NCBI GenBank assembly: GCA_965223845.1
Contig: CBDCXR010000004.1
Location: 6,720,001 to 6,784,000, forward strand
Reading direction: 5' to 3'
Source of the DNA: Planctomycetota bacterium
Lineage (GTDB): Bacteria > Planctomycetota > UBA8108 > SXIK01
Length of the DNA stretch: 64,000 bases
A model generated the notes under the pieces. It made no database searches. It had not been told where the DNA came from and saw nothing but the letters and a program-made list of their open reading frames with translations. Every line of letters starts with the position of its first letter. Position 1 is the first letter of the stretch. A program made the translations under genes and the position numbers. This document shows, in pieces, positions 26,000 through 38,241 of this stretch.

Positions 26000-28900
26000 A
26001 TGAAACGCGAGAAACAATCCCGTCGCCCGGCCGGAGTTCCTCCGGCGCGCGGCCTCTATGACCCCGCCCACGAGCACGATAGTTGCGGCGTCGGGTTCGT
26101 CGCCCACATCAAAGGGGACCGGAGTCACCAGATCGTCCGCGACGCGAACGAGGTCCTCCTCAACATGACGCATCGCGGTGCGTGTGGCTGCGAGCCGAAC
26201 ACGGGGGACGGCGCCGGATTCCTTACGGCGCTACCGCACGAGTTCCTCGCGAAGGTCGCCGAGCGCGATCTCGGAATCACGCTCCCGCCGGCGGGAAGCT
26301 TCTCTGCCGGTCTCGTGTTCCTGCCGCAGGACGACGCAGAGCGCGAGCGTTGCCGGCGCGAAGTCGCGGCGATCATCGCGGATCAGGGCCAGCGACTTCT
26401 CGGGTGGCGCTCCGTGCCGACCGACGCCGACGGCGCCGACATCGGGAACGCGGCGCGCGCGACCGAGCCCGTGATCGAGATGCTCTTCGTCGGTGCCGCT
26501 GACGGACTCGAGGGCGACGCGTTCGAGCGGCAGCTCTACCTCATTCGGAAGCGCGCGACGAGGCTGCTCCGCGAATCGGATCTCGTCGAAGCGAAGATGT
26601 TCTACGTCTGCAGCCTCTCGACGAAGGTGATCGTCTACAAGGGGCAGCTCACACCGGAGCAGGTGATCCCGTATTTTCCTGATCTCGCCGATCCGGACTA
26701 CCGCACGCACCTTGCGATGGTGCACTCGCGCTTCTCGACGAACACGTTCCCGTCGTGGGACCGCGCGCAGCCGAACCGCTTCATGAGTCACAACGGCGAG
26801 ATCAACACGCTTCGGGGGAACAGCAACTGGATGCGCGCGCGCCAGGGACTAGCTCGTTCGGAGCTCTTTGCGGACGAGCTCGAGAAGGCGTTCCCGGTTG
26901 TCGAGCCGGATTGCTCCGACTCCGGCACCTTCGACAATGTGCTCGAGTTCCTCCTCATGACGGGCCGTACGCTCCAGGAAGCCGTCATGATGATGATTCC
27001 CGAGGCGTGGCAGAACCACCGCAGCATGCCGGCGGACAAGAAAGCGTTCTACGAGTACCACTCGTGCCTCATGGAGCCGTGGGACGGTCCCGCTTCGATC
27101 GCGTTTACGGACGGCCACTACATCGGCGCGGTTCTCGACCGAAACGGCCTCCGACCGAGTCGCTTTTACGTGACGAAGGACGATCGTGTGATCATGGCTT
27201 CCGAGGTCGGCGTCCTCAAGGTCGACCCCGCGAACGTCGCGTACAAGGGACGCCTCCAGCCGGGGAAGATGTTCCTCGTCGACTTCGAGGAGGGGCGAAT
27301 CATCGCGGACGACGAGCTGAAGGGCGAGTTCTCCGCGCGGCGGCCGTACCGCGAGTGGCTCGACTCCGAGCGCCTCGAGTTTTCCGAGCTTCCGCCGGCG
27401 GAGCCCGAGCGCGTCGAGCGTAGCGGCCTCCTTCCGCGCATGAAGGCATTCGGCTACACCGTCGAGACGATGCAGTTCATGCTCATTCCGCTGATCACGC
27501 AAAAGCGCGATCCAGTGGGGTCGATGGGGAACGACTCGTCGCTCGCGTGCCTCTCCGACAAGCCGCGGATGCTCTACGATTACTTCAAGCAGCTCTTTGC
27601 GCAGGTGACGAATCCGGCGATCGACTCGATCCGCGAAGAGATCATCATGTCGCTCGCGACGTACATCGGGCCGGAGGGGAACCTTCTCGAGACCACGGCG
27701 GCACACGCCCATCGACTCGCGCTCGAGCACCCGATTCTTGCGAACGACGAGCTCGCGACGCTGAAGGCTCTCGACCACCGCGGCTGGCGGAGCCGGACGA
27801 TCGACATCACCTTCCCGCGGGCGGACGGTGAAGCGGGGATGATCGACGCACTCGATCGAATCTGCGCCGAGGCGGAGAGCGCGATCGAGGCCGGAGATTC
27901 GCTCGTGATTCTCTCCGACCGGGCGGTCGCCCCCGACCGCGCGCCGCTCAGCTCTCTCCTCGCCTGCGGCGCCGTGCACCACCATCTCGTGCGGAAGTCG
28001 ATGCGAACCCGCATCGGCATCGTCCTCGAGAGCGGCGAGGCGCGCGAGGTTCACCATCACTGCCTCCTGATCGGCTACGGCGCCGATGCGATCAATCCCT
28101 ACCTCGCGTTTGAAGCGCTCTGGCGCGCGCGAGAGGACGGCGTGCTCGCCGCCGAGTTCGAGAGTGACGCGGATGTCGTCGCCGCGTACCGAAAGGGCGT
28201 CGCAAAGGGGATGCTCAAGGTGATGGCGAAGATGGGGATCTCGACCCTCCAGAGCTATAAGGGCGCGCAGATCTTCGAAGCGGTCGGCCTCACCGACGCC
28301 GTCATCGCGCAGTGCTTCGCCGGGACCGCGAGTCGCCTCCAGGGCTGCGGTTTCGACGTGCTCGCTGCGGAGGCGCTTCGGCGACATGCGATCGGTTACG
28401 TCGAGCGCGATGGTCAGCCGGGGGCGGTGCTTCCGAACCTCGGCGAGTTCCACTGGCGTTCGGACGGCGAACGCCACATGTGGAGTCCCGACACGATCGC
28501 GAATCTGCAGGTCGCCGCGCGCACACAGGGAAAGGACGCCTACGCGGACTTCGCGCGCCTCGCCGACGAGGATGCGCGCAGCCGCTGCACCTTGCGCGGT
28601 CTTCTTCGGCTGAAGTCGGGCGCGAACGGCGGTTCGATCTCGATCGACGAGGTCGAGCCGGCCGCCGAGATCGTGAAGCGGTTCTGCACGGGGGCGATGA
28701 GCTTCGGGTCGATCTCGGCCGAGGCGCACGAAACGCTCGCCATCGCGATGAATCGTCTGGGAGGCAAGTCGAACACGGGCGAAGGCGGAGAGGACCCGGT
28801 GCGGTTCACGCCGCTCGAGAACGGAGATTCGAAGCGCTCGGCGATCAAGCAGGTCGCTTCCGGGCGGTTCGGCGTCACGACGTGGTATCTCACGAACGCC

Positions 28901-30586
28901 GACGAGCTTCAGATCAAGATCGCTCAAGGGGCGAAGCCGGGCGAGGGAGGCGAGCTCCCCGGCCACAAGGTCGACGAGACCATCGCGCGCATCCGCCACT
29001 CGACGCCGGGTGTCGGGCTCATCAGTCCGCCGCCGCATCACGATATCTATTCGATCGAGGACCTCGCGCAGCTCATCCACGATCTGAAGAACGCGAATCC
29101 ATCCGCGCGAGTGAGCGTGAAGCTCGTCTCCGAGGTCGGCGTCGGCACGATCGCGGCGGGCGTCGCGAAGGCGCACTCCGATCACATTCTGATCTCGGGT
29201 CACGACGGCGGCACGGGCGCGTCGCCGCTCACGAGCATCAAGCACGCCGGCCTGCCGTGGGAGCTCGGCATCGCCGAGACGCACCAGACGCTCGTTCTCA
29301 ATGATCTTCGCTCGCGCGTCGTCCTCCAGACCGACGGTCAGCTCAAGACCGGGCGCGACGTCGTTATCGCCGCGCTCCTCGGAGCGGAGGAGTACGGGTT
29401 CTCGACGGCACCTCTCATCACGCTCGGCTGCATCATGATGCGGAAGTGCCATCTGAACACCTGCCCGGTGGGGATCGCGACCCAGGATCCGGATCTCCGC
29501 GCGAAGTTCAGCGGCGCTCCCGAGCACGTCGTCAACTACCTCTTCCTCGTTGCCGAGGAGGCACGCGGGTACATGGCGGAGCTCGGGTTCCGTACGGTCG
29601 ACGAGATGATCGGGCGCTCCGACGCGCTCGAGGTGAACGCGGCGATTCGGCACTGGAAGTCGGACGGACTCGATCTGTCTCCGATCCTGATGCCGGCGGA
29701 GAAGCCGCGCGCGGACGTCGAGGTCTACTGCACGATCGAGCAAGATCACGGTCTCGACAAGGCGCTCGACAATCGCCTCATCGAGCTCGCTGCGCCGGCG
29801 ATCGACGGGGCCGAGCCCGTCGAGATCGACCTCCCGATCATCAACACGAATCGAACCGTCGGTACGACGCTCAGCCACACGATCGCCAAGAAGTGGGGCG
29901 CGGAGTGCTTGCCGGACGACACGATTCGCATCAAGTTCACGGGCTCCGCCGGGCAGAGCCTCGCGTCGTGGCTCTGTCGCGGCGTGTCGATCGAGCTCGA
30001 AGGCGACGCCAACGACTACGTCGGAAAGGGACTGTCGGGCGGAAGGCTCACGGTCTACCCGCCGCGCGAGTCGACGTTCGCGGCCGAGGAGAACATCCTC
30101 GTCGGGAACGTTTGCCTCTACGGCGCGACGAGCGGCGAGGCGTTCTTCCGCGGGCGGGCGGCGGAGCGGTTCTGCGTGCGGAATTCGGGCGCGCACGCCG
30201 TCATCGAAGGGATCGGTGACCACGGCTGCGAGTACATGACGGGGGGGCGCGTCGTCGTCCTCGGACCGACGGGCCGGAACTTCGCGGCGGGGATGAGCGG
30301 CGGGATCGCCTACATCTGGGATCCGGACCAGAGCTTCGCTGAACGCTGCAACGTCGAGATGGTCGAGCTTGAGCGGGTCGTCACCGAGGAAGACGAGATC
30401 GAGCTGCGGACGCTGATCGAGAAGCACCGCGATGCGACGCAGTCGCCAGTCGCGGCGGATGTGCTCGCGCGCTGGGAGGCGACGCTCGGAGAATTCGTCA
30501 AGGTGATGCCGATCGACTACAAGCGCGTTCTCGAGGCGGCGAAGAAACGAACGAGCGGCGAGGCCGACGAGCTGCAAGTGGCCTGA
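26000..30586 (+). CDS. gltB: glutamate synthase large subunit
   Basis: EHDSCGVGF (Cys1), [49 protein letters not shown] domain. Confidence 0.98.
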
Positions 30587-30709
30587 TGACACGAGAGCCG
30601 AGCCAAGGCGAAAGACTCGAACGTCGCGACCGAATCGCGGACGGTACGCTCTCGCGGAGATCCGCGAGCGCTGAACGATCGCGAGGGAGCGGCGAGGAGC
30701 AAGCACGAC

Positions 30710-32173
30710 ATGGGTAAGCCGACGGGCTTCAAGGAATACCAGCGCGCGACGGTGCCGTACGCCGATCCGAAGACGCGCATCGCGAACTACGACGAGTTTC
30801 TGGTCGAGGTGCCCGAAGAGCACCTGCGGACTCAAGGCGCGCGCTGCATGGACTGCGGCGTCCCGTTCTGCCAGTCCGGCACGGGCTGTCCCGTCGACAA
30901 TCTCATCCCCGAGTGGAACGACCTCGTCTACCACGGCCAGTGGCGCGAAGCGCTCGATCGGCTTCACAAGACGAACAACTTTCCGGAATTCACCGGACGA
31001 GTGTGCCCGGCGCCCTGCGAAGGCGCCTGCGTGCTCGGAATCCACGAGCCGCCCGTCACGATCAAAAACATCGAGAACGCGATCATCGATCGCGGCTTCG
31101 CCGAAGGCTGGGTGAAGGCCGAGCCGCCGGCGATCCGAACCGGGAAGAGCGTCGCCATCATCGGTTCGGGGCCGGCGGGGCTCGCCGCCGCCGCGCAGCT
31201 CAACAAGGCGGGTCACACGGTCACCGTCTACGAGCGCGACGATCGCATCGGCGGTCTCCTCATGTACGGGATCCCGAACATGAAGCTCGAGAAGTGGATC
31301 GTCGAGCGGCGGATCGATCTCCTCCGCGAAGAGGGCGTCCGCTTCGTGACCAACGCTCACGTCGGTGTGAACGTCGACGTTGCGGAGCTTCGCCGGGGGA
31401 GCGACGCTCTTCTCCTTGCCTGCGGAGCGACGAAGCCGCGGGATCTCCCGATTCCGGGACGCGACCTCGACGGGATTCACTTCGCGATGGAGTTTCTTCG
31501 CAAGAACACGAAGAGCCTTCTCGACTCGAAGCTCGCCGACGGGGAGTACATCTCGGCGAAGGATCGAGACGTGATCGTGATCGGCGGTGGCGACACGGGG
31601 ACGGACTGCATCGGGACATCGATTCGGCACGGGTGTAAGAGCCTCGTCAACTTCGAGCTCCTCGATCGTCCGCCCGAGTCGCGCGCACCCGACAACCCCT
31701 GGCCGCAGTGGCCGCGGATCTTCCGCGCCGACTACGGGCATGAAGAGTCGGAGGCGAAGTTCGGCCGCGATCCGCGCGAGTTCGCAATTCTCTCGACGGA
31801 GTTCGTCGGCGACGAGAAGGGGCGCGTAGCGGGAATCCGCACGGTTCGTGTCGGGTGGTCGAAGGACGAGAACGGGCGGCCGAAGTTCGAGAAGCAGGCG
31901 GGAACGGAGGAGGAGTTCAAAGCCGATCTCGTCCTCCTCGCGATGGGGTTTCTCGGTCCGGAAGAGACGCTCGTTCCGAAGCTCGAACTCGAAACCGATC
32001 CGCGGTCGAATTTCGCCGCGGAGCACGGCGCGTACGCCACGAGCGTCGAGGGCGTGTTCGCCGCCGGAGACTGCCGACGCGGGCAGTCGCTCATCGTTTG
32101 GGCGATCCATGAGGGTCGCGGCGCGGCGCGTGAGATCGATCGTTTCTTGATGGGCGAGACGGCGCTGCCCTGA
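30710..32173 (+). CDS. gltD: glutamate synthase small subunit
   Basis: [40 protein letters not shown]. Confidence 0.98.
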
Positions 32174-32232
32174 TTCGCCCGCCGTAGCGGACGGCGTGCC
32201 CCGCACGTCCCGGCGCGATGAGGATCGACCGG

Positions 32233-33639
32233 ATGAGTGAGCGGCCGAAGCGACGACCGCGGGCCGTCGCGGTCCTCTCCCTGTGCACCGTCCTCGTGGT
32301 CGGACTCGCGTTCGCTGCGAGTTGGCCGAGTCTCTCCGCGTACTGGAGTGCGCATCGACTCGCTCAGATCGAGAACGAAGACGATTGGCGCGCGAAGTTG
32401 GACGCGCTCGCGGACGGACGCGTCGTTCGCGTGCTCCCCTTGGTCGCGCAATCGGTTCTCGACGGACCTCGGGCGCCGGTGCCGCCTCAGTTTGATATGG
32501 CTTGTGCGGTCGAGCCCGCGGTCGTCGCGGACCGCTGGCCGCGCCTCGTCTACTTCGATGCGCTCATGCGCGAGCGAAAGTTCGGTCCGGGCGCCGTCGC
32601 GGCGCTCGGTCGGCTTTCGCGAGACGGTCGCTCTCAGGTGCGGGCGTGGGCGGCGCGGTGGCTCGGTGATGTCGCTCGAGCCGACGCGGACTCGGCGCAC
32701 GCGATCGTCCTCGCCATGATCGGGGACGACGATCTCGTCGTGCGGGAGTGCGCGGCGCGCGCGCTCGGAAAGCTCTCCCGATCGCCGCTCTCTCGCATCG
32801 AGATTCTCGGCGATCGCCTCGCGCGCGCGAAGACCGTAGAGGAGGCGACAGCGTTCGCTGACGTGCTCGCGGTGGTGGTCACTGAAGTTGTCCGGGAAGA
32901 CAGCCTCGAGCGACTCGAGGCCGCTTTGCGCGCGTTCGGGATGGGGCGCGAGATCGCACGGGGCGATCTCGTTGGGCCGGTCGTCGACGCTCTCGTGAGA
33001 TCCAATCCGACTCCCGGCCTCGAGTTCAATCTCCGCACGCGCTGGACGGACCATTCGACGCATGTCGAGAGGAGCATCGACCGCGTGGCGGCGCTCTGGG
33101 CCGACGAGGAGGCGCGATGGCTGCGCGCTTCGTCGCGCGAGGTCCGAAACGCTGCCCTCACTGTCTTCAACACGCGTGGAGTTCGCTCGGGCGACGCGAT
33201 CGAACTCGTTTCGCCGTTCCTCGTGGACCCGGATCCCGCGGTGCGCCGACAGGCGGTCGAGTGGATCGGGCAGCAGGACGAAACCGATCGCGTCCTTCGC
33301 GTCCTCCGGCGAGAGCTCGAGAGCGACGATTCCGGGCGGAGCGCCGCCGCTGCGATCGCGATCGCCACGTACATTCAATTCGGAAACGATGATTCCCCCG
33401 GTCGCGGATTCTACTCGAGTGCGTCGGAAGAGGACTCGCGGGCGCTCGTCCGCGCGATCGCCGCGGCGCTCGGAGACCTCGCGGGCCACAGCGCGCACGA
33501 GCACCTCATCGGTGCGCTCGAATGGTTCGGCGACGAATCGGGACCGGCGGCGGGAGCGCTACGCGCGATCGCTGAAGGAGAGGACGAATTCCTCGCCGAC
33601 CGAGCTCGACACGTGCTGCGCGCGCTCGGGGTCCCGTAG
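32233..33639 (+). CDS. membrane-anchored HEAT-repeat protein
   Basis: N-terminal TM segment; repeats such as 'DGRSQVRAWAARWLG', 'DDDLVVRECAARALG' and 'DPDPAVRRQAVEWIG'. Confidence 0.7.
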   Translation: MSERPKRRPRAVAVLSLCTVLVVGLAFAASWPSLSAYWSAHRLAQIENEDDWRAKLDALADGRVVRVLPLVAQSVLDGPRAPVPPQFDMACAVEPAVVADRWPRLVYFDALMRERKFGPGAVAALGRLSRDGRSQVRAWAARWLGDVARADADSAHAIVLAMIGDDDLVVRECAARALGKLSRSPLSRIEILGDRLARAKTVEEATAFADVLAVVVTEVVREDSLERLEAALRAFGMGREIARGDLVGPVVDALVRSNPTPGLEFNLRTRWTDHSTHVERSIDRVAALWADEEARWLRASSREVRNAALTVFNTRGVRSGDAIELVSPFLVDPDPAVRRQAVEWIGQQDETDRVLRVLRRELESDDSGRSAAAAIAIATYIQFGNDDSPGRGFYSSASEEDSRALVRAIAAALGDLAGHSAHEHLIGALEWFGDESGPAAGALRAIAEGEDEFLADRARHVLRALGVP

Positions 33640-33858
33640 CGGCGACGGCTCGGCGGAGGAGAACGTCACCGCGAACGACGCGAACTAGGAGCAGAGATGT
33701 GAGAGCGACGATCGCCCGACGAGGTCGAAGCGTCAGGTCGTCGCCCCGTTCTGAGCCCTTCGCGCTCCACCAGTCGTCGAGGAGTCCACGCGCGCGAGAC
33801 GTTCCGAAAACTCTCGGCGACCCGAGCCCGCCGGGAATTCGTCATCGTACTCTTCTCC

Positions 33859-34518
33859 ATGAGCACCACTCCGCGCCGACTCCTCGACCGGATGTTCGAA
33901 CGCGCGCAGGGCCCGGCCGTTGCGGCGGCGTTTCCTGCGGTCGCGCTCGCGTGCGTGTTCCTCGTCCTTTTGACCGATTATCTTCTCGGAACGAAGCTCC
34001 GCTTTCCCGGTCGCGAGTTCTTTGCTGCCTGGTGGTTTCTCGAGCTCGGTTCGCTGTGGAGCTTTCCGCTGCTCAATCTAATTCAGCGCTGGAGCGGTCC
34101 TCGCGGCGTCGCCACGACGGTCGTCGTCGTGCTCCCGGTGTTGATCGCTACACTCGTCGTTCCGGCTGTTCTGTTCGACATCACCGCGCTTCTCGGAATC
34201 ACGTACCTTCTTCTTTTCGTCTTCCACAAAGCGGTGTCGTTCTACTGCACGATGTCGTCTACGACCGGCCGCGAGAGCGTCCTCTGTCGAGCGATGGTGA
34301 CCGGGTTCGCGTGGCTGTTCTCGGTTCTCCTCGGTGGCCTGCTCGTCCTCATCGCCAAGATCGCGCTGCCGATCGCTGTCCTGAGTGACGACGGAGTCAT
34401 CGTCGGAGCCATGCTCGCGTCCGGAGCGATCTACTTCTCTCTCCACGCGGCGCTCGAGCTCATGCTGCCGCGCTTCGGAGTGACCACGCCGGTCGGTGCG
34501 AGATTCTCTGCGTCGTAG
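33859..34518 (+). CDS. hypothetical integral membrane protein
   Basis: About 6 hydrophobic helices. Confidence 0.7.
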   Translation: MSTTPRRLLDRMFERAQGPAVAAAFPAVALACVFLVLLTDYLLGTKLRFPGREFFAAWWFLELGSLWSFPLLNLIQRWSGPRGVATTVVVVLPVLIATLVVPAVLFDITALLGITYLLLFVFHKAVSFYCTMSSTTGRESVLCRAMVTGFAWLFSVLLGGLLVLIAKIALPIAVLSDDGVIVGAMLASGAIYFSLHAALELMLPRFGVTTPVGARFSAS

Positions 34519-34829
34519 CCTCCGAACGCGAGAGTCTCGTCGATCGGGTCGGCGCGCTGCGACCTGGTGAGCCGCTGATCGGTCCCGTCGCGCAATCGAC
34601 CGGCCGCTTGCCGGCCGGCGAGGGGGATCAGGAGAGTCCTGATAGAACGCCCTCGCGGCCCCGTCTAAACTTCGGGTGTTGCGCGAGGGACACTCGCGGA
34701 AACGGACTCCCGCGCGACGGAGATGACGCCGTCGCAAGCGGGGTCCAACCGCGATCCGAGAGCGCTCGAGAAAGCTAAAGAAGAGAGGCGGGCGCGACTC
34801 CCGCACGATGGAGCAGCATTCGATTGCCC

Positions 34830-35066
34830 ACAACTGCCCCGGGGCCGGGGCCTTTCGGGGTCCCGGCCTTTTCAAGCCTCCGAGCGGAGTGAGCGAGCCA
34901 TGCGGCGCGCTATCGAGCTCGGCTTGATCGCCCGAGGGCTCGAGTTCGACCAGAACTGTCCACAACTGCCCCGGGGCCGGGGCCTCTTGAGGTCCCGGCC
35001 TTTTATCCGCGAGTCTACAACTGCCCCGGAGGTCGGAGTCCTTGTGGCTCCGGCCTCTTTCTTTTT
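34830..35066 (+). repeat. three direct-repeat cassettes: ACAACTGCCCCGG + GC hairpin + U tract
   Basis: 13-mer at 34830, 34962 and 35017, each immediately followed by a terminator-like hairpin and T run. Confidence 0.85.
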
Positions 35067-35157
35067 CGCGGGGTGACGGCGTTCGCGATCGGTGACCGCG
35101 CGGCCGACGACGCGGGGTGACTCGACGAAAGAGACCGATCGACCTGGACTGCGTTCC

Positions 35158-35199
35158 GGAGACCGACCCACGCTTCGGCTGGTCGGTCTCCCTTTTTTT
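35158..35199 (+). terminator. intrinsic terminator
   Basis: GGAGACCGACC / GGTCGGTCTCC stem followed by T7. Confidence 0.75.
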
Positions 35200-35358
35200 C
35201 GCGGCGCAAGGGACTCGGAAGTCGTTCGCGCAGAGAGTCGCGCTCGACGCGCCTCGGGCGCCGTGCGAAGATCGAGCGATTCACACGGAGGGTCGAGAGC
35301 CAGCGCGCACGTTTGCGGCATGCCGTCTCGCCCGCACTCGGATCGGCGAGGTCGAGAG

Positions 35359-38241
35359 ATGCGAGTTTTCGCGACGATGGTTGCCTTGAGCCTCATCGGG
35401 ACGGCGTCGGCCGCCGATTGGCCGATGTGGCGCGCCGATTCCGGCCGAAGCGCCCGGACGGCGGAGTCCCTTCCCGCGGAGCTCGCGCTCCGGTGGACGC
35501 GGCAGCTTCCGGCCCCCGCACCGGCATTCCGCAGCTCCCGGCTGCAGTTCGACCGCGTCGACGAGCCGATCGTCGTCGGAACGAGTGTGGTCGTCGGCTC
35601 GGCTCGCACCGGGAGCGTGACCGCGCTCGATACGACGTCCGGCGAGGTAAGGTGGCGGACGTACACCGACGGGCCGGTCCGGTTCGCGCCGGCGGCGTGG
35701 CGAGATCGCCTCTTCGTGGGATCGGACGACGGGCAGCTCTACTGTCTGCGCGCGAAGGACGGAGCCGCGCTCTGGAGATTTCGCGCCGTACCTTCGGGTC
35801 GGTCGGTGCTCGGGAACGGACAGTGGATTTCGCTCTGGCCGATCCGCGGCGGCCCCGTCGTCCACGACGATCGCGTGTACTTCGCCGCGGGAGTGTGGGC
35901 GTTCGAGGGCGTCTTCGTCTACGCTCTCGACGCCGCGAGCGGCGACGTCGTTTGGATGAACGACCGCACCGGCTCGATCTACGGCCAGCAGCCGCACCGC
36001 GCGGAGGGATTCAGCGGACTTTCGCCCCAGGGCTACCTGGTCGTTCACGGCTCCGAGCTAGTCGTTCCGTGCGGGACGGCCTACCCGGCGCGCTTCGATC
36101 TCGCGACGGGCGTGCTCCGCGAGTTCGCCCTCCCTTCTCAGAGTCGACTTCCCGGCGGTTGGTTCGCCGCGTCGGACAGCGCGGAGGCGAAGGCTCGTCG
36201 GCGCGGCGAGCTCGTCTTCGATTCGGCGGTGAACGCAGAGGACCACGAAGATCGCCCCATGCGCGGCCGGGGATCGGTCGGCGCACAGTCGACGATTCGG
36301 GTCGGCGAGAGAACGATTTCACTTCGCGACGAGCTGCCGGGCGTCGACGGCGATGTGCAGAGTCTCGTCGCGGGGGACGGGAAACTCTTCGCCGCGACGG
36401 GCGACGGTAGGATTCATTGCCTCGCTGCGGGTTCCGATCGAACGCATCGGATCGAACTCGAGCGGACTCCGCTCCCCGAGCCTTCGTCCGCTGAGGCGGC
36501 GCGCGCGAAATCTCTCGTCGCGGCGGCTCGATCGCGCGACGGTTTCGCATTCGTCTTCGGCGCGCCGGCGGAAGGCTTTCTCGGCGCGCTCATCGAAGAA
36601 TCGCGTTTCCGTTTCGTCGTGTTCGAATCCGACGTCGAGCGCGCGGACTCGCTTCGCCGCGCTCTCGAGGGCGCGGGACTCCTCGGCGATCGCGTTTCGG
36701 TGGTGACGAGGCCCGTCGCAGAGACCGAGTTTCCACCGTACGCCGCCGAGCTCGCGATCTTCGGTCGCGGTCTGCCGCCCGCGGAGTTCGACGCCGATCC
36801 ATGGTTCGCTCGAATCCTTCCGCTCCTCCGGCCGTACGGCGGAACGGCGGTGTTCCCCCTCCGCGGGGCGGATCCTCGCGAGCTCGCCGCGAGCTGGAAC
36901 GAAGGCGGTCGTGAGCGTTACTCGTTCACTTCGGAGAACCAGCGCTTGCTCGTTCGGCGCGAGGGTGCGCTTCCGGGCGCAACGGACTACCGCGGGGGCT
37001 GGTCGAGTGCCGACGAGCGCGTGCGCGCTCCGCTCGGCGTGCTCTGGTTCGGCGACGAGCTCGGGCACTTCAAGCGGTCGCCTCAACCTCAGTTCCTCAG
37101 CGGGGTGATGGTCTCGCGTCCGAAGGACTGGCGGAGCAAGGTGCGGCGCGGAAAGGGATACGTCCTCGCGCCGGCGACGTTCAGTGACGTCTACACCGGT
37201 CGCATTCTCCACGAAAGCGAAGCGCAGGAGGTGCGAGCGGAGTTTGCGCATGCCGTCGACGCTCCGCAGCCATCCCAGTACCGACCGCCGACGCAAACCG
37301 ACGCGTGGAAGCCCCCGCCGCCCGTCGCCGGCGAGCGCGTGAATCCGCTCACGGGAAAGAAGGAGCCGCGCGCCTTTCCGAAGAGCTACGGCTGCGATGG
37401 CGGGATCGACTACGGCTTCGTCTACACGATGCGCTCGGCTACGCCGGCCTATTACGACAAGACCATCGAGAGCGGAACGATCAACATCAGCGGGCCGCGT
37501 TCGGGCTGCACGAACAGCAGCGTCCCCGCAGCGGGTCTTTTGAACGTTCCTTACTTCTACGAAGGCTGTACGTGCAGCTATCCGCTGCCATCGGGTCTCG
37601 CGCTCGTTGCGATGCCCGAAGTGCACGAACAGTGGAGTGCGTGGGGGCCGTCGAGTGAAGGAAGGATCGAGAGAGTCGGCTTCAACTTCGGTGCGCCGGG
37701 CGACCGCGTGACGCGCGACGGCACGCTGTGGCTCGACGTCCCGAGCGTCGGCGGGCCTTCTCCGGCGGTCGATGTCACGCTCGAGCCGGCACTCGGAAGC
37801 GATGCGATCGGCTACCGGTATCGCCACGCGACGTGGATCGAAGGCGGACGGGGCTGGCCTTGGGTCGCGGCGTCCTGGGCTCAAGACGTCGGCAAGGCGA
37901 CGGTGCGCGGACTCCGTCCCGGAGCGTATACCGCGAGACTCTACTTCACTCACCCTCCCGTTCCGACGGTGATCGATGTGAACGTGGGCGGTGTGGTGCT
38001 CGAGGCGCTGAACCTGGACGCCGAGACGGGTGGACGCTTCCGTTCGATCGTGAAGGAGCTGCGCGATGTGACCGCCGACGCGAGTGGGACCATCGAGGTC
38101 GCTCTCACGGCGCGTTTCGGCATCCCGGTATTGAGCGGGCTCGAGCTCGTCGCGGAGGGACTCTCTCCCGGGGCCGTGCCGAACCTCCGTCAGCGAGACG
38201 TGACTCAGCTCTCGAGCTCAAGCGTCGAGCGCGGTCAGTAG
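35359..38241 (+). CDS. secreted PQQ-like beta-propeller protein with methyltransferase-like and malectin-like domains
   Basis: Signal peptide + ADWPMWRADSGR; propeller repeats (ALD..SGEV.W, VGSDDG.LYCL); Cys motif GCTN..GCTCSYP; C-terminal YTARLYF...VLSGLEL. Confidence 0.8.
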   Translation: MRVFATMVALSLIGTASAADWPMWRADSGRSARTAESLPAELALRWTRQLPAPAPAFRSSRLQFDRVDEPIVVGTSVVVGSARTGSVTALDTTSGEVRWRTYTDGPVRFAPAAWRDRLFVGSDDGQLYCLRAKDGAALWRFRAVPSGRSVLGNGQWISLWPIRGGPVVHDDRVYFAAGVWAFEGVFVYALDAASGDVVWMNDRTGSIYGQQPHRAEGFSGLSPQGYLVVHGSELVVPCGTAYPARFDLATGVLREFALPSQSRLPGGWFAASDSAEAKARRRGELVFDSAVNAEDHEDRPMRGRGSVGAQSTIRVGERTISLRDELPGVDGDVQSLVAGDGKLFAATGDGRIHCLAAGSDRTHRIELERTPLPEPSSAEAARAKSLVAAARSRDGFAFVFGAPAEGFLGALIEESRFRFVVFESDVERADSLRRALEGAGLLGDRVSVVTRPVAETEFPPYAAELAIFGRGLPPAEFDADPWFARILPLLRPYGGTAVFPLRGADPRELAASWNEGGRERYSFTSENQRLLVRREGALPGATDYRGGWSSADERVRAPLGVLWFGDELGHFKRSPQPQFLSGVMVSRPKDWRSKVRRGKGYVLAPATFSDVYTGRILHESEAQEVRAEFAHAVDAPQPSQYRPPTQTDAWKPPPPVAGERVNPLTGKKEPRAFPKSYGCDGGIDYGFVYTMRSATPAYYDKTIESGTINISGPRSGCTNSSVPAAGLLNVPYFYEGCTCSYPLPSGLALVAMPEVHEQWSAWGPSSEGRIERVGFNFGAPGDRVTRDGTLWLDVPSVGGPSPAVDVTLEPALGSDAIGYRYRHATWIEGGRGWPWVAASWAQDVGKATVRGLRPGAYTARLYFTHPPVPTVIDVNVGGVVLEALNLDAETGGRFRSIVKELRDVTADASGTIEVALTARFGIPVLSGLELVAEGLSPGAVPNLRQRDVTQLSSSSVERGQ

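Follow-up and report, generated by a model that had tools for sequence, protein, structure and literature searches.

The three tandem repeat-hairpin units found at this locus are most probably members of a multicopy small RNA (sRNA) gene family that appears to be specific to one order of Planctomycetota. We give this reading a probability of about 0.6, and the RNAs would act in trans by way of a shared seed. What is conserved is a unit in which the 14-mer CCCACAACUGCCCC is joined directly to an intrinsic terminator. Judged by its recurrence in related genomes, this unit probably represents a conserved and apparently undescribed sRNA gene family. The combination of a promoter, an invariant unpaired stretch and a terminator, present in several copies and independent of the neighbouring genes, fits trans-acting sibling sRNAs. 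Hereafter, the window designates the whole stretch of 64,000 nucleotides that was analyzed.

A pattern search over the whole window found three exact copies of the 13-mer ACAACTGCCCCGG, all on the + strand (34830, 34962 and 35017) and thus spaced by 132 and 55 nt. Each of them (3/3) is directly followed on its 3′ side by a GC-rich hairpin and a T run. With up to two mismatches allowed, one further match was obtained in the window (27260, − strand), while shuffled sequences gave a mean of 1.06 matches. The array is located in an 840-nt gap between the end of the ORF 33859–34518 and the ATG at 35359 of a PQQ-like gene (Table 1). ORFs overlapping this gap have GC1/GC2/GC3 values of 0.69/0.58/0.69 versus 0.68/0.47/0.81 for the genes of this genome, and they do not have the codon-position GC pattern of those genes. 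Elsewhere in the window, an ORF of 1785 aa (26849–32206, − strand) had no Pfam family at E ≤ 0.01.

Table 1. Features of the array and of its two flanking genes (window coordinates)
Feature	Position	Strand	Remarks
Upstream co-oriented ORF, 219 aa	33859..34518	+	No Pfam family match
TAAACT, candidate −10 box for the array	34666..34671	+	From sequence; the only −35 candidate is a poor TAGAAC, 17 nt upstream; putative function
Structured 5′ leader of copy 1	34672..34826	+	Only in this genome, and without paralogue there; 40 relatives gave no match
Copy 1 seed, CCCACAACTGCCCC	34827..34840	+	Mean unpaired probability 0.54–0.60
Copy 1 terminator hairpin	34843..34872	+	10-bp stem, loop TTTCGG, T4 only
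Spacer / 5′ part of copy 2	34874..34958	+	Without convincing promoter of its own
Copy 2 seed, TCCACAACTGCCCC	34959..34972	+	First C replaced by T
Copy 2 terminator	34975..35006	+	Stem as in copy 1, loop TCTTGA, TTTTAT
Copy 3 seed, TCTACAACTGCCCC	35014..35027	+	Mean unpaired probability 0.83, folded alone
Copy 3 terminator	35028..35067	+	GGAGGTCGG...CCGGCCTC type, common to other genera; long U-rich tail
Non-coding stretch ending in the fourth terminator	35070..35199	+	No seed, no paralogue; fold z −2.17; tie to the family unclear
Downstream gene, secreted PQQ-like/BamB-like beta-propeller protein	35359..38241	+	ATG 35359 in frame, no frameshift

The stem arms of copy 1 are GGCCGGGGCC (34843–52) and GGTCCCGGCC (34859–68), followed by TTTT. 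Those of copy 2 occupy 34975–84 and 34991–35000 and are followed by TTTTAT, and the hairpin of copy 3 (35028–35058) is followed by TTCTTTTTC. The covariance model of the unit (see below) matched copy 1 with 52.1 bits (34816–34873), copy 2 with 50.8 bits (34948–35006) and copy 3 with 66.8 bits. GC-rich stem-loops with a U tract on the transcribed strand, the hallmark of intrinsic terminators, are found at the array, and in a strict terminator scan of the three copies only copy 3 passed: copies 1 and 2 failed because their T tracts (TTTT and TTTTAT) are short. The fourth terminator (35158–35199) consists of an 11-bp stem (35158–68/35181–91) and T7. Between copy 3 and this terminator the hexanucleotide GGTGAC occurs three times (35072, 35091 and 35116), which may be due to chance or represent a protein-binding site.

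Regarding the 5′ part of the array, the copy 1 leader (34672–34815) folds better than shuffled sequences (z −2.84, with 1/200 shuffles equally good), and both the CGCGAG/CTCGCG hairpin and the GGACTCCCGC..GCGGGGTCC hairpin are present at the locus. The leader of copy 2 folds no better than shuffles (z −1.10). The elements on which the original prediction was built, namely TAAACT, the leader hairpins, the three 13-mers with their hairpins, the fourth terminator and the copy of GAGACCGA at 35131, are all present as it described them. Logan contigs from 3 runs (2 samples of 1 study), which are possibly the source of the assembly itself, cover positions 34400–35500 with 0 differences, and the array is therefore no obvious assembly artefact. 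A 151-nt contig from a run of a different study (X5) matches 35136–35273, again with 0 differences; it covers the fourth terminator and beyond, the rest of the 1.1-kb stretch being uncovered in that run.

We then considered the copies in the rest of the genome (7.93 Mb, 65% GC), which contains 11 units at 8 loci. All 11 have the motif, the hairpin and the T run in this order and on the same strand. The covariance model, made of 11 aligned units, gave 7 genome matches at E ≤ 1e-3 plus weaker ones; a tandem pair at 5.54 Mb that the model missed was supplied by a scan combining a regular expression with folding. A fourth exact 13-mer is located at 3.70 Mb and again has a terminator on its 3′ side. 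The 5.54-Mb variant pair (5538643–5538840, + strand) consists of two units at a distance of 150 nt. Their seeds are CCCCCACACUGCUC and CCCCACAACUGCUC, and their terminator differs from the others (GGGACUCnCnCC...GGUGAGAGUCCCG followed by U7–11). Besides this pair, further tandem pairs were observed in genomes G001 and G014, and in a relative from another family of the order the tandem pair has a longer common sequence, AACAAGCCCACAACTGCCCCGGAGGTCGG...CCGGCCTCTT. The members at 2477914 and 163173 are identical in the terminator and in ~30 nt downstream, which suggests a recent duplication. In the first of these, the 2.478-Mb copy, the last letter of the seed is G instead of C; the stop codon of a 160-aa ORF lies 10 nt before the start of this copy.

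Most near-matches to the 13-mer in this genome are of another nature. They consist of ACAACTGCCCCG followed by A, C or T and of close variants, located at 1242248–1247748 and 5315309–5315969 and spaced by multiples of 108 nt on one strand. This arrangement looks like a long gene with ~36-aa repeats containing Asp-Asn-Cys-Pro, presumably resembling thrombospondin type 3 repeats. Taken together, the matches with one letter off that do not belong to the family occur on both strands. Many of them form a run with distances of 108 nt or a multiple, and they are probably coding repeats.

The flanks of the window array showed no synteny to the other family loci, and a genome search for paralogues of the copy 1 leader, the copy 2 spacer and the fourth-terminator unit was negative. 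For these reasons the array appears to be a lineage-specific expansion to three copies. Comparison of the stems suggests that copy 3 keeps the terminator type of other genera and that copies 1 and 2, whose stem is altered, arose later as a duplicate pair. A sequence-similarity search with 34600–35250 against 40 relatives retrieved the seed/terminator part only, in one genome, plus one spurious match.

With the covariance model, matches were obtained in 17 of the 21 genomes of the order, representing 11/11 genera and 3 families. Three of the four genomes without a match also lack a match to the phosphodiesterase gene that neighbours one of the copies, and in the fourth the phosphodiesterase match begins at base 1 of its contig; the absences of the unit may thus be assembly gaps. 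Outside the order, the four covariance-model loci inspected (L074–L077, a second match in G054 being left out) carry no seed and were discarded as terminator-like noise. The few matches inspected in the other 38 genomes of the class were all devoid of the seed. A sample of 401 genomes from the phylum included 9 of the order, and 8 of these contain the exact 14-mer. The 8 sites of the 14-mer outside the order, in 6/392 genomes, are never followed by a hairpin and T run and were rejected as chance matches; one of them lies in what we take to be an iron-sulphur-type CxxC...HNCP coding context. Further copies were found in public genome contigs, in MAGs labelled Planctomycetota or Planctomycetia. 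As far as searched, the RNA family thus defined seems confined to one order of uncultured Planctomycetota.

The original prediction had named a match to a known Rfam family as a reason to abandon it. Rfam 15 (4227 models) gave 0 matches in the whole window at gathering thresholds, and at E ≤ 10 the region 34400–35500 scored only 13–16 bits to terminator-like parts of sX11, BjrC68, ar35 and mir-9201, for which the cut-offs are 39–95 bits.

Conservation of the two parts of the unit was examined in a model-based alignment of 36 matches, 2 of which correspond to the reverse strand of the hairpin and 1 or 2 to a terminator only. Almost every real member retains the 14-mer without change. The terminator is of at least three unrelated sequence types, for example GGAGGUCGG..CCGGCCUC and AGGGCGC..GCGCCCU. 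Stem cells pair in 95% of cases versus 43–59% in controls with a slid 3′ partner, double changes (both sides) occur in 11 of the 12 stem pairs, and 0/500 shuffles reach the observed covariation score, in an alignment fitted to the model, which biases toward pairing. An invariant 14-mer next to a covarying terminator stem thus points to selection on sequence for the motif and on structure for the hairpin, across genomes. The same double selection had been proposed from the three window copies, and the cross-genome covariation agrees with it.

The seeds are partly to mostly unpaired, with predicted probabilities of 0.52–0.83. A seed common to paralogues, as in sibling sRNAs, is accordingly present; it is near-invariant in members from 17 genomes and predicted to be accessible. 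We also observed a second C-rich motif, UCCCC (for example GGAAUCCCCAUUUUAG, GGUUCCCCAAAGUUCC and GCCUCCCCGG), in the terminator loop of many members from other genera (L047–L049, L052, L054–L062 and L065–L069); the window copies do not have it.

Every unit has its own terminator, and many members of the family have in addition their own promoter-like site. In a short subtype, boxes of the form TTGAnn-N16–18-TAnnnT are found, the −10 box ending 7–9 nt before CCAC; examples are TTGACC-17-TATTGT, TTGATC-17-TAGCAT and TTGCAA-16-TAAAGT. Among 36 filtered sequences, one of which (L092) is a coding chance match, the best promoter-like site scored at least 7 of 12 in 18, and in 11 of these 18 the −10 box ends 7–9 nt before CCAC. 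The promoter sequences vary between genera. Such a sigma-70-like placement of the −10 box would give an RNA of ~55 nt with the motif at its extreme 5′ end. A long subtype has similar boxes 45–60 nt upstream, for instance TTGACG-17-TTAAAA at 3.70 Mb. For the three window copies, neither the strict scan nor a simple scorer detected a convincing promoter at the distance usual in the family, and the strict promoter scan found none in the whole of 33500–36500.

This last result counts against the sRNA reading, and so does the outcome of the target searches, in which no target was found. RNAduplex of the seed with 3,866 crudely called translation-start regions gave 28 sites at or below −24 kcal/mol versus 11–107 for 20 permuted seeds. 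Contiguous 7–9-nt complements of the seed are not enriched near starts, and order-wide the seed-complement matches were not above a reversed-pattern control. No signal came from candidate targets with 8-nt matches, a set that is biased in that GUG within the complement was called as start codon. Similarly, hand inspection of seed complements of at least 10 nt in the genome gave no signal, one such ‘target’ being the antisense of the 5.54-Mb family pair. Pairing of the seed with 16S, 23S and tRNAs was no better than that of shuffled seeds; for tRNA-Thr(UGU), at −23.9 kcal/mol, 29/100 shuffles were equally good. No conserved pairing with the seed was detected in the neighbouring phosphodiesterase mRNA.

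An invariance over 14 nt is equally expected of a protein-binding site. The 14-mer with its hairpin could be the recognition site of an RNA-binding protein, which a read-through transcript with three sites would titrate in the way CsrB and RsmZ titrate CsrA. We consider this unlikely, in spite of several observations that speak for it: the 14 nt are invariant across three families without detectable target complementarity, the window holds three motifs within 240 nt of which the first two have weak U tracts, and many members from other genera have the UCCCC loop motif. This genome, 91.7% complete, gave no match to Hfq, CsrA or ProQ, and a partner protein, if any, would thus be of another kind. 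However, most members of the family would have a single motif on an RNA of ~55 nt, which makes a poor sponge, and no candidate protein is linked to the units by synteny. Moreover, C-to-U changes are among the seed substitutions of window copies 2 and 3, L072 and the 5.54-Mb pair. Such changes would keep pairing with G, which lends weak support to base-pairing. Somewhat less probable still is the more specific version in which CCCACAACUGCCCC and its hairpin dock a global RNA-binding regulator of this order and the window array is a dedicated sponge RNA; if true, it would give access to a new type of post-transcriptional network in an uncultured lineage.

Crude gene calls place 6 of the 8 loci of this genome 10–309 nt downstream of a co-oriented ORF, one of them 10 nt after its stop codon. 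The unit might then be a 3′-UTR or terminator element, either a stability or processing signal or a source of 3′-UTR-derived sRNAs, and in the window the corresponding mRNA would be that of the 219-aa ORF that ends at 34518. The strict scan found no terminator between this ORF and copy 1, so that the array could be the 3′ UTR of the ORF. There is also a precedent in the CcsR1–4 RNAs, as far as the available part of that report describes them (PMC8034643). As a general explanation, it nevertheless appears improbable: no co-oriented gene lies upstream of the copies at 0.163 Mb and 6.845 Mb (2/8 loci), the motif of many members in other genomes is immediately preceded by a promoter-like site, and the upstream genes are unrelated. 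It also overlaps the sRNA reading, since an sRNA derived from a 3′ UTR would still use the seed, and some copies located 10–60 nt after co-oriented genes may be 3′-UTR elements rather than free-standing genes.

One copy is syntenic between genomes. It adjoins a type I phosphodiesterase/nucleotide pyrophosphatase gene (PF01663), and on its other side adk (adenylate kinase, PF00406) was found where tested (G000, G003 and G011). This arrangement of adk, small RNA and phosphodiesterase is present in the genome studied here (G000) at 6843778–6846411 and at loci L054–L062, L073 and L124–L139. In family f1 (G000 and G003) the copy is on the strand opposite to the PF01663 gene, whereas in family f2 (G004, G008, G010, G011, G012, G014, G015 and G019; genera g5, g9 and g10) both are on the same strand. 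In G017 the copy is convergent with the phosphodiesterase gene and lies just past the 3′ end of the gene. In family f3, the neighbour of the copies is a class V aminotransferase gene. Other orders of the class have no RNA unit at the phosphodiesterase gene, which there comes directly after a different gene.

These neighbourhoods bear on the other mechanism put forward in the original prediction, an antitermination leader gating serial terminators. In this form the array would be a cis-acting leader whose serial attenuators control the PQQ-like gene. Four + strand terminators do precede a + strand gene, and in g5 and g9 the unit is found 60–100 nt upstream of the co-oriented phosphodiesterase gene. 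However, each locus has a different downstream gene, convergent genes follow at least three of the copies in this genome, and the syntenic copy flips strand, being on the opposite one in G000 and G003. A constant position in co-orientation with a conserved gene was thus not observed, no riboswitch or leader family matched, and the PQQ-like gene has no link to the RNA family at any other locus. As to the alternative pairing proposed for GAGACCGA, this duplicate at 35131, upstream of the fourth terminator, could pair with the 3′ arm of that terminator, but in the MFE fold it pairs elsewhere. We regard a cis-acting leader as very improbable. The covariance-model search and the comparison of downstream genes, both suggested by the original prediction, gave instead an order-wide family whose downstream genes differ.

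A repetitive or mobile DNA element of REP or MITE type, or a protein-binding site at the DNA level, is hardly credible: a short repeated motif does adjoin palindromes, but with just 11 copies in 7.9 Mb, a motif always 5′ of the hairpin on the T-run strand, one site syntenic across families and a hairpin sequence free to vary, nothing like the high-copy REP in both orientations that had been named as a refutation was seen. A CRISPR array was rejected, as already in the original prediction, given the irregular spacing (132 and 55 nt) and ‘repeats’ that include variable hairpins.

Among the proposals first made, the comparative data support that of tandem sRNAs with a shared seed: there are 8 loci, the distribution is order-wide, many units have their own promoter-like site and all their own terminator, and the neighbours vary. 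A simple model of the sibling sRNAs would thus be as follows. The 14-mer would act in trans as a seed pairing with G-rich, GGGGCAGUUGUGGG-like sites in target RNAs, and the terminator hairpin would stabilize the RNA and define its 3′ end. The window array would be transcribed as a whole, either from a start near the TAAACT box or as a 3′ UTR attached to the upstream ORF, with stepwise termination at copies 1, 2 and 3, since the U tracts of copies 1 and 2 are short (T4 and TTTTAT) and that of copy 3 is long. The product would carry one to three seeds per RNA or be processed to single units.

Sibling sRNAs with a shared seed are as such an ordinary kind of element. What the family would offer is a handle on riboregulation in Planctomycetota: its short probe sequence and the 3′ ends predicted here could serve to mine metatranscriptomes. 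It is multicopy, was found in 11/11 genera of the order and occurs in a genome without a match to the three classical sRNA chaperone or partner proteins. In the partly available literature covered by our search, no regulatory small RNA of Planctomycetota was described.

Paralogous sRNAs, some of them in tandem, are exemplified by Qrr1–5 of Vibrio, OmrA/OmrB of E. coli and PrrF1/2 of Pseudomonas. Upstream of their terminator, these Hfq-dependent proteobacterial RNAs share a single-stranded region of absolute conservation, which is often located at the 5′ end. In contrast, no Hfq, ProQ or CsrA match was obtained here and none of those Rfam families matches. LhrC1–5 of Listeria monocytogenes are five homologues with pyrimidine-rich target-recognition motifs repeated within and between copies; according to the available part of the report, they work without needing Hfq, the question of additive or redundant action is raised, a CU-rich UCCC-type motif is present three times per RNA, the target is lapB and the regulator LisRK (PMC4132741). 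The family described here resembles them, as far as that account goes, as a set of multicopy sibling sRNAs with a pyrimidine-rich motif. It differs in having one 14-nt CCCACAACUGCCCC per unit, in belonging to a different phylum and in showing no sequence or Rfam similarity to them.

The CcsR1–4 ‘cuckoo’ RNAs of Rhodobacter sphaeroides, in the part of the report available to us, lie in a row, are co-transcribed with an upstream small gene and are matured from its 3′ UTR; their units follow a DUF1127 gene, contain a C-rich anti-SD-like motif and two hairpins with CCUCCUCCC loops, and are cut by RNase E (PMC8034643). Here the motif is linear and 5′ of the terminator, and each unit has a terminator. 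The window array is thus no member of the CcsR family, given that CCUCCUCCC is absent from the sequence, the upstream ORF matched no Pfam family, DUF1127 included, and no Rfam match was obtained. Their mode of production could nonetheless be a model for how the three window copies are made. As judged from these partial sources, LhrC1–5 and CcsR1–4 are, in our analysis, the known systems that appear closest in kind to the family.
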